Shown here: positions 34,022 to 39,524 of the stretch, one piece after another
Numbering within the stretch: position 1 is the stretch's first letter
Layout of the letters: each line of letters begins with the position of its first letter
Assembly (NCBI RefSeq): GCF_003334815.1
Contig: NZ_QOWO01000009.1
Source: Escherichia coli
GTDB lineage: Bacteria; Pseudomonadota; Gammaproteobacteria; Enterobacterales; Enterobacteriaceae
Reading direction: 5' to 3' (one strand)
Length of the DNA: 64,000 nt
Notes under the pieces: model-generated
Told to the model about the DNA's origin: nothing
Seen by the model: only the letters and a program-made list of their open reading frames with translations
Databases searched by the model: none
Translations under genes and position numbers: made by a program

Positions 34022-36685
34022 TTACGCCAGACGCGGGTTAACTTTATCTGCATCGATGTTGAATTTGGCGATTGCGTCAGCAACCACTTTCTTATCGATT
34101 TCGCCACGTTTAGCCAGTTCGCCCAGCGCCGCAACCACGACATAAGAAGCATCAACTTCGAAGTGGTGACGCAGGTTCTCACGGCTGTCGGAACGACCGA
34201 AGCCATCAGTACCCAGTACGCGGTAGTCGTCAGCCGGTACGTAAGTACGGACCTGCTCAGCGAACAGTTTCATATAGTCGGTAGATGCCACTGCCGGAGC
34301 GTCGTTCATCACCTGAGCGATATACGGAACGCGCGGAGTTTCCAGCGGGTGCAGCATGTTCCAGCGTTCACAATCCTGACCATCACGCGCCAGCTCGGTG
34401 AAGGAGGTCACGCTATAAACGTCAGAACCTACGCCGTAATCTTTCGCCAGGATCTCAGCTGCTTCACGGACGTGACGCAGGATAGAACCGGAGCCGAGCA
34501 GCTGAACTTTACCTTTGCTACCTTCAATAGTTTCGAGTTTGTAGATACCTTTACGGATACCTTCCTCAGCACCTTCCGGCATTGCCGGCATGTGGTAGTT
34601 TTCGTTCAGCGTAGTGATGTAGTAGTAAACGTTCTCTTGTTTTTCACCGTACATACGCTCCAGACCGTCATGCATGATGACAGCAACTTCGTAAGCGTAA
34701 GCCGGGTCGTAAGAGATACAGTTCGGGATAGTCAGCGACTGAATGTGGCTGTGACCATCTTCGTGCTGCAGACCTTCGCCGTTCAGGGTGGTACGACCGG
34801 AAGTACCGCCGATCAGGAAGCCACGCGCTTGCTGGTCGCCAGCCGCCCAGCACAGATCGCCAATACGCTGGAAGCCGAACATCGAGTAATAGATGTAGAA
34901 CGGGATCATCGGCAGATTGTTGGTGCTGTAAGAGGTCGCCGCTGCCAGCCAGGAACAACCTGCGCCCAGCTCGTTGATCCCTTCCTGCAGAATCTGACCT
35001 TTCTCGTCTTCTTTATAGTAAGCAACCTGCTCGCGGTCCTGCGGGGTGTACTGCTGACCGTTCGGGCTGTAAATACCAATCTGACGGAACAGACCTTCCA
35101 TACCGAAAGTACGCGCTTCGTCGGCGATGATCGGTACCAGACGATCTTTGATCGACTTGTTCTTCAGCATCACGTTCAGAGCACGAACGAAAGCGATAGT
35201 GGTAGAGATCTCTTTGCTCTGCTCTTCCAACAGCGCGCCGAAGTCTTGCAGGCTCGGCAGCTCAAGCTTCTCGGTGAAGTTCGGCTGACGGCTTGGCAGA
35301 TAACCGTGCAGTTTCTGACGCTGAGCGTGCAGATAGGTATGCTCTTCAGAACCTTCCGGGAAGGTGATGTACGGCAGTTTTTCGATATCTGCATCAGACA
35401 CCGGCACATTGAAACGGTCGCGGATATGACGCACACCGTCCATGTTCATTTTCTTAACCTGGTGCGCGATGTTTTTACCTTCAGCCGCGTCGCCCATGCC
35501 GTAACCTTTAATGGTATGAGCAAGGATTACTGTCGCTTTGCCTTTGGTTTCCTGCGCTTTCTTGAATGCAGCGTAGATTTTCTTCGGATCGTGACCACCA
35601 CGGTTCAGTGCCCAGATCTGCTCGTCAGTCCAGTCTGCAACCAGTGCTGCGGTTTCAGGATATTTACCGAAGAAGTGTTCACGAACGTACGCACCATCTT
35701 TCGATTTGAAGGTCTGGTAGTCGCCGTCAACGGTTTCGTTCATCAGCTGGATCAGTTTACCGCTGGTATCCTTACGCAGCAGTTCATCCCAACGGCTACC
35801 CCACATCACTTTGATCACGTTCCAGCCAGCACCTTCGAAGATGCCTTCCAGTTCGTTGATGATCTTGCCGTTACCGGTGACCGGGCCGTCAAGACGCTGC
35901 AGGTTACAGTTGATAACGAAGACCAGGTTATCCAGTTTTTCACGGGTAGCGATGGTGATCGCACCTTTGGATTCCGGTTCGTCCATTTCACCGTCACCGA
36001 GGAACGCGTAAACGGTTTGTTTAGAGGTATCTTTCAGGCCACGGTGTTCCAGATATTTCAGGAATTTAGCCTGGTAAATAGCACCAATCGGACCCAGACC
36101 CATAGATACGGTCGGGAACTGCCAGAATTCCGGCATCAGTTTCGGGTGCGGATAGGAAGAGAGGCCATTGCCGTGAACTTCCTGACGGAAGTTATCCAGC
36201 TGCTCCTGAGTCAGACGACCTTCCAGGAAAGCACGAGCGTACACGCCCGGGGAGATGTGGCCCTGGAAGTAAACCAGGTCGCCGCCATCCTGCTCGTTGC
36301 GTGCACGGAAGAAGTGGTTAAAGCACACATCATAAATGGTTGCGGAAGACTGGAAGGACGCCATATGGCCGCCCAGTTCGAGGTCTTTTTTCGACGCACG
36401 CAGCACCGTCATGATGGCGTTCCAGCGGATAGCTGAACGAATACGGCGTTCCAGTTCCAGATTACCCGGATACTCCGGTTGTTCTTCAACGGGGATGGTG
36501 TTGATGTAGTTGCTGATACCTGTGCCTGCGGCTACGTTTACACCGCCTTTGCGGGCTTCAGCAAGCAGTTGGTCGATCAGATACTGAGCACGCTCAACAC
36601 CTTCTTCACGGATGACCGATTCGATCGCCTGGAGCCAGTCGCGAGTTTCGATCGGATCCACGTCATTTGGGAAACGTTCTGACAT
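34022..36685 (-). CDS. aceE: pyruvate dehydrogenase E1 component
   Basis: 887-aa ORF matching the homodimeric E1 ([24 protein letters not shown]...). Confidence 0.95.
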
Positions 36686-36845
36686 GGGTTATTCCTTATC
36701 TATCTAATAACGTTGAGTTTTCTGGAACCTGTCCCATTGAACTCTCGCCGGAAAGCTCAATAAGACAGGTTCTACGTTTAGTTGCCGCGCTTTTATATGC
36801 GCTTGATTTACAACATCTTCTGGATAATTTTTACCAGAAAAATCA

Positions 36846-37610
36846 CTAATTCTTTCGTTGCTCCAGACGACGCAGAGAACGCTCACGGCGGCTCTCTTCA
36901 CGACTTCTGTCGAGCAAAATTTCTTCGATAAAGGCCAGATGGCGATGCGATGCTTCGCGCGCTTCTTCCGGCTTACCGGCCATAATCGCTTCAAATATGC
37001 GGGTGCGGTGACTACTCACCAGCGGCAGCATCTCGCGACGCGAATAGAGCAATTCGAAGTTCTGGCGGACATTCTGGGCCAACATCGGCTCCATACACCT
37101 TAGCAGATGAAGCAGAACTACATTGTGGGCCGCTTCGGTGACGGCAATCTGATACTGGAGTACGGCGTTTGATTCCGCGTCCAGATCGCCAGACTGCTGC
37201 GCCAGCTCTATGGCGTGGTGGAGTTCACGGATGCGTTCCTTGTCTTCATCGGTACTACGCAGCGCGGCGTAATAAGCGGCGATACCTTCCAGGGCGTGTC
37301 GTGTTTCGAGCAAGTCATACTGTGACTCAGGATGGTCGGAGAGCAGCTCCACCAGCGGATCGCTGAAGCTTTGCCATAGGCTGCTCTGGACAAAAGTGCC
37401 GCCACCCTGGCGACGAAGCAACAAGCCCTTCGCTTCGAGACGTTGAATCGCCTCACGCAAGGAGGGACGGGAGACGTCAAACTGTTTTGCCAGTTCGCGT
37501 TCCGGTGGGAGTTTTTCGCCCGGGCGGAGAGTGCCTTCGAGGATCAAAAACTCCAGTTGCTGCTCAATCACATCGGAGAGTTTTGGTTGGCGGATTTTGC
37601 TGTAGGCCAT
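36846..37610 (-). CDS. pdhR: GntR-family pyruvate-responsive transcriptional regulator
   Basis: ORF 36846..37643; PdhR sequence starts [17 protein letters not shown] (254 aa) with a GntR-type HTH and FCD domain. Confidence 0.93.
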
Positions 37611-37641
37611 GAGTTCCTGTCTTAAGCCACTTGCCGAAGTC

Positions 37642-37658
37642 AATTGGTCTTACCAATT
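37642..37658. promoter_or_regulatory. PdhR operator palindrome aattggtcttaccaatt
   Basis: Perfect 7-bp inverted repeat (AATTGGT-N3-ACCAATT) read about 30 bp upstream of the pdhR start; matches the known PdhR box in the pdhR-aceEF-lpd promoter. Confidence 0.8.
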
Positions 37659-38062
37659 TCATGTCTGTGACGCTAAAGTAACAAAGTATTCACCTTATGT
37701 CCATACAGGTTTTGATTGAAATCATGAAACTGTGCACATTTTAACAACTTGACATATATAACGTTTCAAAGTTGTAACTATGCACAAATGTAGACTTTAC
37801 GTAGGAAAGGAGTTTTTTAACGATTATTAAACTATAAAAATCCGAATTGAACCGATTCACTTACCAATTTTGTGATTTTTAATTCAATTAAAACGAATTT
37901 AAATTCATTCTACATATTGAGAGGGGTTGAGGCTGAGCTTTACAAACGGTTTCTTTTTAAGCAACTCATCTTCAACCATGCATAAAGCGGGTGCATTCGC
38001 TGCCGCATACCATTATTCTTGATCTGACGGAAGTCTTTTTGTAACAATTCAAACTTCTTTGA

Positions 38063-38080
38063 TGTAAACAAATTAATACA
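38063..38080. promoter_or_regulatory. candidate TyrR box (tgtaaa-N6-aataca) in the aroP promoter region
   Basis: Partial match to the TGTAAA-N6-TTTACA consensus about 70-90 bp upstream of the aroP start; aroP is known to be TyrR-regulated, but the exact site is not verified here. Confidence 0.3.
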
Positions 38081-38150
38081 ACAAACGGAATTGCAAACTT
38101 ACACACGCATCACTGCGTAGATCAAAAAAACAACCACCGCACGAGGTTTC

Positions 38151-39524
38151 ATGATGGAAGGTCAACAGCACGGCGAGCAGCTAAAGCGCGGCCTTAAAAA
38201 CCGCCATATTCAGCTTATCGCGCTGGGTGGCGCGATAGGGACCGGGTTATTCCTGGGTAGCGCCTCCGTAATACAGTCCGCAGGGCCAGGGATTATCCTG
38301 GGTTACGCCATTGCTGGTTTTATCGCCTTTCTGATCATGCGTCAGCTGGGTGAAATGGTGGTCGAAGAACCTGTCGCAGGCTCCTTTAGCCACTTTGCTT
38401 ATAAATACTGGGGCAGTTTTGCCGGTTTCGCCTCTGGCTGGAACTACTGGGTACTGTACGTTTTAGTTGCCATGGCTGAGCTGACTGCCGTGGGTAAATA
38501 CATTCAGTTCTGGTATCCGGAAATCCCCACCTGGGTTTCTGCCGCCGTATTCTTTGTGGTGATTAACGCCATCAACCTGACCAACGTTAAAGTGTTTGGC
38601 GAGATGGAGTTCTGGTTTGCCATTATCAAAGTTATCGCGGTGGTAGCGATGATCATCTTCGGCGGCTGGCTGCTATTCAGTGGCAACGGCGGCCCGCAGG
38701 CGACCGTTAGCAACCTGTGGGATCAGGGTGGTTTCCTGCCGCACGGCTTCACCGGGCTGGTGATGATGATGGCGATTATCATGTTCTCGTTCGGTGGTCT
38801 GGAACTGGTGGGGATCACCGCAGCAGAAGCTGATAACCCGGAGCAAAGTATACCGAAAGCAACTAACCAGGTTATCTACCGCATCCTGATTTTCTATATT
38901 GGTTCGTTAGCCGTTCTGCTCTCACTGATGCCGTGGACCCGCGTTACCGCCGATACCAGTCCGTTTGTGCTGATCTTCCACGAGTTAGGCGATACCTTTG
39001 TGGCGAATGCGCTGAACATCGTGGTACTGACTGCGGCGCTCTCCGTGTACAACAGCTGCGTATATTGCAACAGCCGTATGCTGTTTGGTCTGGCACAACA
39101 GGGTAATGCGCCAAAAGCGCTGGCGTCTGTCGATAAACGTGGTGTACCAGTAAATACCATTCTGGTGTCTGCACTGGTAACGGCGTTGTGCGTACTGATT
39201 AACTACCTTGCCCCAGAGTCCGCTTTCGGACTGTTAATGGCGCTGGTGGTATCTGCACTGGTAATCAACTGGGCGATGATTAGCCTGGCGCATATGAAAT
39301 TCCGTCGCGCCAAGCAGGAACAAGGCGTGGTAACTCGCTTCCCTGCTCTGCTTTATCCGCTGGGTAACTGGATCTGCCTGCTGTTTATGGCGGCGGTACT
39401 GGTGATTATGCTGATGACCCCAGGAATGGCGATTTCGGTATACCTGATCCCGGTATGGCTGATCGTGTTAGGTATCGGCTATCTGTTTAAAGAGAAAACC
39501 GCCAAAGCCGTAAAAGCGCATTAA
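38151..39524 (+). CDS. aroP: aromatic amino acid:H+ symporter (APC family)
   Basis: 457-aa ORF with 12 TM segments (MMEGQQHGEQLKRGLKNRHIQLIALGGAIGTGLF...). Confidence 0.95.
   Translation: MMEGQQHGEQLKRGLKNRHIQLIALGGAIGTGLFLGSASVIQSAGPGIILGYAIAGFIAFLIMRQLGEMVVEEPVAGSFSHFAYKYWGSFAGFASGWNYWVLYVLVAMAELTAVGKYIQFWYPEIPTWVSAAVFFVVINAINLTNVKVFGEMEFWFAIIKVIAVVAMIIFGGWLLFSGNGGPQATVSNLWDQGGFLPHGFTGLVMMMAIIMFSFGGLELVGITAAEADNPEQSIPKATNQVIYRILIFYIGSLAVLLSLMPWTRVTADTSPFVLIFHELGDTFVANALNIVVLTAALSVYNSCVYCNSRMLFGLAQQGNAPKALASVDKRGVPVNTILVSALVTALCVLINYLAPESAFGLLMALVVSALVINWAMISLAHMKFRRAKQEQGVVTRFPALLYPLGNWICLLFMAAVLVIMLMTPGMAISVYLIPVWLIVLGIGYLFKEKTAKAVKAH

Follow-up and report, generated by a model that had tools for sequence, protein, structure and literature searches.

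The divergent pdhR-aroP control region of Escherichia coli: a conservation map with predicted Cra and ArgR operators at its centre

The pdhR-aroP spacer and its conserved flanks

The stretch of Escherichia coli DNA analysed here (64 kb, hereafter the window) contains the divergently oriented genes pdhR and aroP and, between them, a control region whose features are collected in Table 1. A long, AT-rich divergent control region had been described at this position in the original prediction, and the ORF map bears this out: the spacer is 540 bp long at 35% GC, in a window of 0.51 overall, and it is the second-lowest-GC stretch of its length within the 64 kb. Its GC content falls to 0.295 over 37700-37960, with a minimum of 0.28-0.30 at the centre. 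A base-by-base comparison found 100% identity to positions 121552-122091 of MG1655 (window coordinates are 159702 minus the MG1655 coordinate), an interval in which the MG1655 RefSeq record has no annotated features. The region is the documented aroP-pdhR region of E. coli K-12, the same locus with zero differences, and the published PdhR box, transcription start site (TSS), FNR position, P3 -10 element and TyrR box all map onto the window.

Conservation was assessed with one genome per species carrying PdhR, which gave 80 loci. In 78 of the 80, from about 40 genera, aroP and pdhR are divergent neighbours, and in 77 of these 78 the spacer measures 524-653 bp, mostly 530-545; the remaining locus (L059, from Superficieibacter) has a 1,981-bp spacer with a usp remnant. 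Because the length is so similar in species that carry the gene pair, the long spacer is ancestral in Enterobacteriaceae. We aligned the 79 spacers (the window and 78 species loci) and measured identity to E. coli against a neutral baseline of 47%, which is the value found for the four-fold synonymous sites in pdhR. The spacer alternates between strongly conserved blocks and unconstrained stretches, the latter including 37860-37870 (34% identity), 37910-37938 (28%) and 38020-38062 (42%). Several blocks beyond the two promoters stand above the synonymous-site baseline, so that the additional conserved elements on which the original prediction had staked itself are present. Other genera, whose spacers have 38-42% GC, retain both boxes and length, and extreme AT content is therefore not the property that has been conserved.

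Table 1. Genes, published elements and predicted sites in and around the pdhR-aroP spacer (window coordinates)
Feature	Position	Strand	Basis or remark
pdhR gene	36846-37610	-	ORF map; start at 37610
pdhR-aroP divergent intergenic control region	37611-38150		540 bp, 35% GC; ORF map and sequence
PdhR operator AATTGGT-CTT-ACCAATT, AATTGGTCTTACCAATT	37642-37658		+11 to +27 of pdhRp
pdhR TSS	37668	-	5'RACE promoter sequence GTATGGACATAAGGTGAATACTTTGTTACTTTAGCGTCA (PMC2759082) mapped onto the window
pdhR core promoter	37675-37703	-	-10 TACTTT 37680..37675; -35 TGGACA 37703..37698; read relative to the published TSS
FNR site TTGAT-TGAA-ATCAT (TTGATTGAAATCAT)	37712-37725		Centre 37718.5, i.e. -50.5 from the pdhR TSS
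Conserved upstream block GCACATTTTAACAAC, then TACAGAAATAACGTTTCA..TGTAAC..TGCACAAATG	37734-37790		Alignment identity
Conserved block	37796-37836		Conserved-block list
Cra (FruR) consensus core TGAACCGATTCA	37848-37859		Exact TGAANCGNTTCA match; predicted
ARG box 1 TGTGATTTTTAATTCAAT	37871-37888		1 mismatch to WNTGAATWWWWATTCANW
ARG box 2 AACGAATTTAAATTCATT	37892-37909		1 mismatch to WNTGAATWWWWATTCANW; 3 bp after box 1
Unconstrained central spacer	37910-37938		28% identity, below the 47% baseline; no conserved fold
Conserved box TTTACAAACGGTTTCTTTTTAAG (TTTACAAATGG-TTTCTTTTTA); family consensus TTTACAAATGGTTTCTTTTTA	37939-37961		76% identity
aroP P1/P3 overlapping core region	37980-38019		Published P3 -10 located in the sequence
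P3 -10 TGGTAT	38012..38007	-	Published element (PMC7142922) found in the sequence
Strong TyrR box TGTAAACAAATTAATACA	38063-38080		2 mismatches; 80% identity
aroP 5' leader: C/A-rich stretch and GAGG ribosome-binding site	38081-38150	+	Sequence
aroP gene	38151-39524	+	ORF map; start at 38151

On the pdhR side, the perfect PdhR palindrome pointed out in the original prediction is exact, and it is the only exact match to the PdhR pattern AATTGGTNNNACCAATT in the 64 kb. It has the 17-bp palindromic form AATTGGTnnnACCAATT of a PdhR (GntR/FadR-type) operator and is listed as a 14/14 box by gSELEX (PMC7660256). Identity across 69 non-Escherichia species is 99%, and neither half-site differs in any of the 24 representative genera shown. 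The box lies just downstream of the pdhR start site, where bound repressor would block transcription; that start was placed by 5'RACE as a single TSS, an A that precedes the ATG by 58 nt (PMC2759082). The core promoter block (37668-37703) is 95% identical across genera, against the synonymous-site baseline of 47%. Upstream of it, the published FNR position at -50.5, a ChIP-seq site with its peak at MG1655 121,987, or 37715 in the window (PMC3688515), coincides exactly with the tabulated FNR element, which is 93% conserved; FNR ChIP-chip agrees (PMC1802558; see also PMC3974632).

Beyond the FNR site, GCACATTTTAACAAC (37734-37748) reaches 95% identity and the remainder of the upstream block (37749-37790) 76%. 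ArcA, CRP or MarA-type regulators are candidate binders of this block. ArcA ChIP-seq gives two binding regions upstream of pdhR (PMC3798270), and the pdhR-aceEF-lpd operon is repressed by Cra and activated by CRP (PMC5888115). An invariant extended -10-like element, TGTTAAAAT, on the minus strand at 37746..37738 was considered as a second pdhR promoter and set aside, since 5'RACE gives a single TSS (PMC2759082).

On the aroP side, promoters P1 and P2 have been described together with a divergent, weak P3 and with TyrR boxes (PMC7142922). Counting pdhRp, more than two promoters are thus on record for the spacer (PMC2759082, PMC7142922), in agreement with the multiple promoters that had been foreseen. 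The P1/P3 core shows 80% identity, and a Salmonella RamA ChIP site, GCATTCGCGGCCACA, corresponds to the same block (PMC10268841). The TyrR box in Table 1 is the sole match in the spacer with three or fewer mismatches. aroP is a verified GcvB R1 target subject to post-transcriptional repression (PMC11878033), and the leader (38081-38150) is the presumed target region.

Predicted Cra and ArgR operators at the centre

The original prediction had drawn attention to direct and inverted AT-rich repeats near 37840-37910 and had read them as sites for nucleoid proteins. Both of the strings it quoted are present, at 37844-37860 and 37879-37910, so the observation stands; the reading as generic nucleoid-protein sites does not, as the strings fall in a Cra-consensus box and tandem ARG boxes. 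Generic repeat content is not above chance for a spacer of this composition: the count of short direct repeats equals the dinucleotide-shuffle expectation, and inverted 7-mers show no more than a marginal excess over shuffles in 37830-37915 (P about 0.04). Judged by motif, the first repeat is part of a predicted Cra-consensus operator and the second part of a predicted ARG-box operator. Since these are ordinary operators, there is no call to postulate a new gene or element for them.

The Cra core TGAANCGNTTCA has one exact match in the 64 kb, the one in Table 1, and the palindromic form of the core, TGAAnCGnTTCA, is found there with a chance expectation in the spacer that we estimate at ~6e-4. 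The core is found in 72 of the 79 intergenic sequences (78 species loci and the window), a count which, the species being related, is higher than that of independent observations. In 70 of these 72 the start of the core is 237-241 nt away from the pdhR ATG, the two exceptions lying at 248 and 255 nt, and the core has 94% identity in the family alignment. The only variants are of the form TGAA[C/G]CG[A/T/G]TTCA, in which just two N positions vary, matching the degeneracy of the consensus.

Operators for Cra (FruR) are known at pykF, ppsA and epd, among others. The box described here would resemble them in its exact core match with the two degenerate positions free, and its function at 37848-37859 is suggested by motif and conservation. 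It lies ~180 bp upstream of the pdhR TSS, whereas a Cra ChIP-exo study places Cra binding downstream of two pdhR promoters (PMC5888115). There is a Cra-like site with one mismatch inside pdhR, at 37444-37455, and this could be the published ChIP-exo site.

Canonical ArgR operators, such as those of argCBH, carAB and artJ, consist of two 18-bp ARG boxes 3 bp apart. The same 3-bp tandem is found next to the Cra core, with one mismatch per box. Just two matches to the ARG-box consensus WNTGAATWWWWATTCANW, an 18-bp imperfect palindrome, occur in the 64 kb with two or fewer mismatches, and they are these two, 21 bp apart; a tandem of this kind arose in none of 20,000 composition-matched random 540-mers (P < 5e-5). 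Of the 49 ARG-box matches (two or fewer mismatches) in the species set, 46 are placed at +11 or +31/+32 relative to the Cra core; the background elsewhere is 3 per 38,427 positions. An ARG box at +11 is found in 30 of the 72 species with a Cra core, and the second box is weak in many genera. The canonical operators overlap their promoter, whereas the ARG boxes here lie ~115 bp upstream of the aroP P1 core and hold a position fixed to pdhR and not to aroP.

A published ChIP-chip and ChIP-exo study of ArgR describes, upstream of the aroP promoter, a double peak-pair that it assigns to an "upstream mode" (PMC4381063). This fits the tandem ARG boxes, the match being one of location wording and of the term "double peak-pair" in that text. 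We infer that 37848-37859 and the ARG boxes are sites bound in vivo, and likewise which promoter they act on.

The spacing of these boxes bears on their target. In more than 70 Enterobacteriaceae species the Cra box lies ~238 nt and the ARG operator ~261 nt from the start codon of pdhR, whereas on the other side the interval up to aroP differs by more than 100 bp between species. As the genus-to-genus variation in length falls on the aroP side of the boxes, the module is anchored to pdhR. Current annotation assigns ArgR at this spacer to aroP; the anchoring would instead suggest that arginine and glycolytic flux act, unrecognised so far, on the expression of pyruvate dehydrogenase, or that the module holds an unmapped promoter. 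On this reading, which we regard as speculative and rather improbable, the Cra box and the ARG operator may form one conserved composite module.

Alternative readings of the AT-rich centre

The alternative that retains most weight is that the length and AT-richness of the spacer make it a platform for H-NS, IHF and Fis with non-productive promoter-like sites, and that the repeats are generic curved or AT-tract DNA. The interval 121694-122036, aroP(-)/pdhR(+), is one of 78 PlatProm-defined "promoter islands" (supplement to Panyukov & Ozoline 2013, PMC3661553), a class defined by a very high density of predicted start points and reported in all 78 cases to be H-NS bound and weakly transcribed. 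In the window this island (121694_343) covers 37666-38008. H-NS also represses the P3-driven usp gene of island-bearing strains (PMC7142922), the central GC content is low, and generic repeat content, as noted above, is at chance. H-NS binding, one of the original suggestions, is thus published for the promoter island and for P3-driven usp, and it applies to the AT-rich stretches between boxes and not to the flagged repeats.

Those repeats are poorly explained in this way, as they fit the consensuses of Cra and ArgR much better than chance would allow and keep their positions, and other genera preserve the boxes and the length at a higher GC content. The H-NS high-affinity motif is absent from the spacer; the IHF consensus WATCAANNNNTTR has six matches in the 64 kb and zero within 37611-38150, so that the suggested IHF binding finds no counterpart there. 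A sigma70 consensus scan found no strong promoter-like site. The locus is like other promoter islands in being AT-rich, H-NS associated and weakly transcribed, but most of these flank horizontally acquired genes, whereas here the island lies between two core genes, both they and the spacer are ancestral in 78 species, and specific operators are strongly conserved. Only one of five foreign-gene predictors flags the aroP/pdhR locus (table in PMC3661553); the link to foreign DNA is, in this case, that other strains have the PAIusp island inserted at the same place. As an account of the whole spacer we find this alternative doubtful, although it can still hold for the stretches between boxes. For the boxes themselves, we prefer an ancestral array of specific operators.

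An unannotated gene for a small RNA or small protein in the middle of the spacer, expressed for instance from P3 or an internal promoter, is very unlikely. In its favour, P3 fires toward pdhR from about 38000, two minus-strand small ORFs exist (24 codons from 37979 and 18 codons from 37996), and promoter islands are reported to yield short oligonucleotide transcripts. Against it, an Rfam search at E <= 10 over 36600-38600 returned just tp2 in the pdhR-aceE spacer and noise, and a consensus scan of 37500-38250 found zero terminator-like sites. The folding of a putative P3 transcript and of the central plus strand did not differ significantly from shuffles (z = -1.8 and +1.1, respectively), and conserved structure was absent from the central spacer over the 79 sequences (median z about 0 to +0.6); GC-rich hairpins do occur there in some genera, with a median z still about 0. 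The ATG of the 24-codon ORF at 37979 is AGG in most genera, and the ORFs that share the 37996 start differ in length (11 to 46 codons) and are alike just in stretches of invariant DNA. A plus-strand ORF beginning at the ACAAATGG box, found in 44 species, was rejected as well: Escherichia has ACG and then an in-frame stop, and the ORF overlaps promoter DNA. 5'RACE records a single TSS upstream of pdhR (PMC2759082), MG1655 RefSeq holds no gene here, and the sole extra transcript on record is the weak, "non-productive" one from P3 (PMC7142922). The small transcript that had been proposed is therefore rejected, given the lack of an Rfam match, terminator, fold or conserved ORF, and the suggested search for short conserved ORFs or conserved sRNA structure found neither across the aligned species.

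A third possibility arises from a polymorphism within the species. The central segment 37785-37990 is present in 4,365 of 5,426 complete E. coli genomes and absent in 1,061; of the partial-match group, the three strains that were inspected (H17, H18 and H20) have usp (annotated tssD) and imu immunity genes in its place. The pdhR-aroP spacer is the known insertion site of PAIusp, and P3 is the promoter used for usp in strains with the island (Rihtar et al. 2020, PMC7142922). By megablast against a usp+ strain, homology stops at 37791 and resumes at 37981/38062, and nothing in the window's spacer resembles island DNA. In the usp+ strain AVS0247, the Cra box and its neighbours are retained next to the island, on a flank allele closest to Citrobacter and Salmonella (84-86% identity) and not to Escherichia. 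This suggests, from sequence comparison, that the island arrived along with its flanks through homologous recombination and that a crossover took place at the conserved block whose end is 37790.

With 1,061 genomes lacking the segment, a break in homology to the usp+ strain and a low GC content, the AT-rich centre (37792-37980) might be taken for a scar left by the loss of an acquired island such as PAIusp, but this origin is extremely unlikely and is ruled out by outgroup spacers: the spacers of 78 species agree in length and in the order of their boxes (Cra, ARG, TTTACAAATGG), L059 alone having anything usp-like, the window's spacer lacks island-like DNA, and the divergent allele of usp+ E. 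coli points to insertion with flank replacement. The K-12 form is accordingly the empty ancestral site, not a scar, because the outgroups share its length and ordered boxes; compared with the published PAIusp locus (PMC7142922), the present window is the same intergenic region with the site empty.

The box at 37939-37961 is found on both sides of the island in AVS0247, with a copy on each side, and as the aroP-side junction in L059, where usp is decayed. The conserved TTTACAAATGGTTTCTTTTTA box may possibly be an att-like target for PAIusp, an integrase-less island. The duplication is imperfect and T-rich, and so is counted as a lead and not as a result.

A shared control region for pdhR-aceEF-lpd and aroP

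Taken together, the spacer is very probably an ancestral, densely packed bidirectional control region common to pdhR-aceEF-lpd and aroP. On the pdhR side, PdhR at +11..+27, acting on its own gene, and FNR at -50.5 would both repress a single sigma70/sigma38 promoter with its TSS at 37668 on the minus strand; upstream of the FNR site come ~70 bp of conserved sequence (37734-37790), and ArcA and CRP are known to act on this promoter. In the centre, the Cra-consensus operator (37848-37859), separated by 11 bp from the tandem ARG-box operator (37871-37909), would bring glycolytic-flux (Cra) and arginine (ArgR) signals to the spacer. On the aroP side, TyrR boxes would repress the overlapping P1 and P2 and favour the divergent, weak P3, and the aroP leader would be targeted by GcvB. 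The unconstrained AT-rich stretches between blocks could be coated by H-NS and would correspond to the published "promoter island". In about 20% of E. coli, the PAIusp genotoxin island occupies this same spacer, with usp expressed from P3.

The region is real, ordinary and already known, and holds no hidden gene. What is added here is modest: the base-level placement of the Cra-consensus and tandem ARG boxes and a family-wide conservation map. The region nonetheless controls the entry of carbon into the TCA cycle, through pdhR-aceEF-lpd, and general aromatic amino-acid uptake, through aroP, and is a textbook example of many regulators acting on one divergent stretch. A map of constraint that includes the conserved boxes, with the Cra/ArgR module positioned relative to pdhR, is modestly useful in this setting, and for pathogen genomics it gives a clearer picture of the position and arrangement of the usp genotoxin island within the spacer.

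Sequence patterns in the pdhR-aroP spacer

An exact 11-nt repeat, CTTACCAATTT, covers the right-hand half of the PdhR box and recurs directly after the Cra box in the divergent control region between pdhR and aroP; it is confined to Escherichia and occurs at about chance level for the composition of the spacer. Upstream of the Cra box, a TTTACC-N8-GGTAG-TTTTAAC-N6-TGAAACG pattern, containing a TACC/GGTA dyad and a Cra-like half-site, is kept at fixed spacing in most genera. The extended -10-like TGTTAAAAT, some 70 nt upstream of the pdhR transcription start, is nearly invariant among aligned representative genera, despite which only one pdhR start was detected by 5'RACE (PMC2759082).

Coordinates of features in the window and in two further loci
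Feature	Locus	Position	Strand
CTTACCAATTT repeat	window	37649-37659; 37860-37870	
TGTTAAAAT, extended -10-like	window	37738-37746	-
Dyad and Cra-like half-site pattern	window	37796-37836	
Central spacer segment	window	37785-37990	
TGAATCGCCTCA, Cra-like	window	37444-37455	
tp2 match	window	36688-36801	+
GC minimum	window	~2321-2860	
Island-adjoining spacer boxes	L004	20181-20353; 24933-25019	
aroP-pdhR spacer holding the usp remnant	L059	6020-8000	

Features beyond the spacer

Within the pdhR coding sequence, TGAATCGCCTCA is Cra-like with one mismatch, and published descriptions of Cra binding downstream of the promoters may refer to this predicted site. The tp2 sRNA family (RF02030) is matched over its full length in the pdhR-aceE spacer (103 bits, E = 1.5e-19), running antisense to the operon. 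The stretch with the lowest GC of the whole window (0.31) corresponds to the yadN/folK 'promoter island' listed at 156927-157305 in PMC3661553.

The PAIusp island and its flanks

The central spacer segment is absent from 1,061 of 5,426 complete E. coli genomes, and the inspected strains without it (L002, L003 and L004) carry the genotoxin island PAIusp, comprising usp (annotated tssD), two to four immunity genes and orphan toxin fragments. An additional IS3 sits at spacer position 142 in CFT073. In L004 the spacer boxes adjoining the island, including the Cra box, are a Citrobacter/Salmonella-like allele (84-86% identity) and found no match among Escherichia alleles. Imperfect copies of the TTTACAAATGG-TTTCTTTTTA box, a conserved block of the spacer, lie at both island ends. 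Because of this flank allele and the paired boxes, there are sequence-based hints that the flanks were co-transferred with the island and that the box is an att-like target.

Between aroP and pdhR of Superficieibacter sp. 1612_C1 (L059) lies a usp remnant that carries a frameshift, breaks off at residue 406 and has no immunity genes; its aroP-side junction is at the same conserved TTTACAAATGG-TTTCTTTTTA box. Judged from its sequence, this remnant would extend PAIusp, in decayed form, beyond Escherichia and Salmonella.
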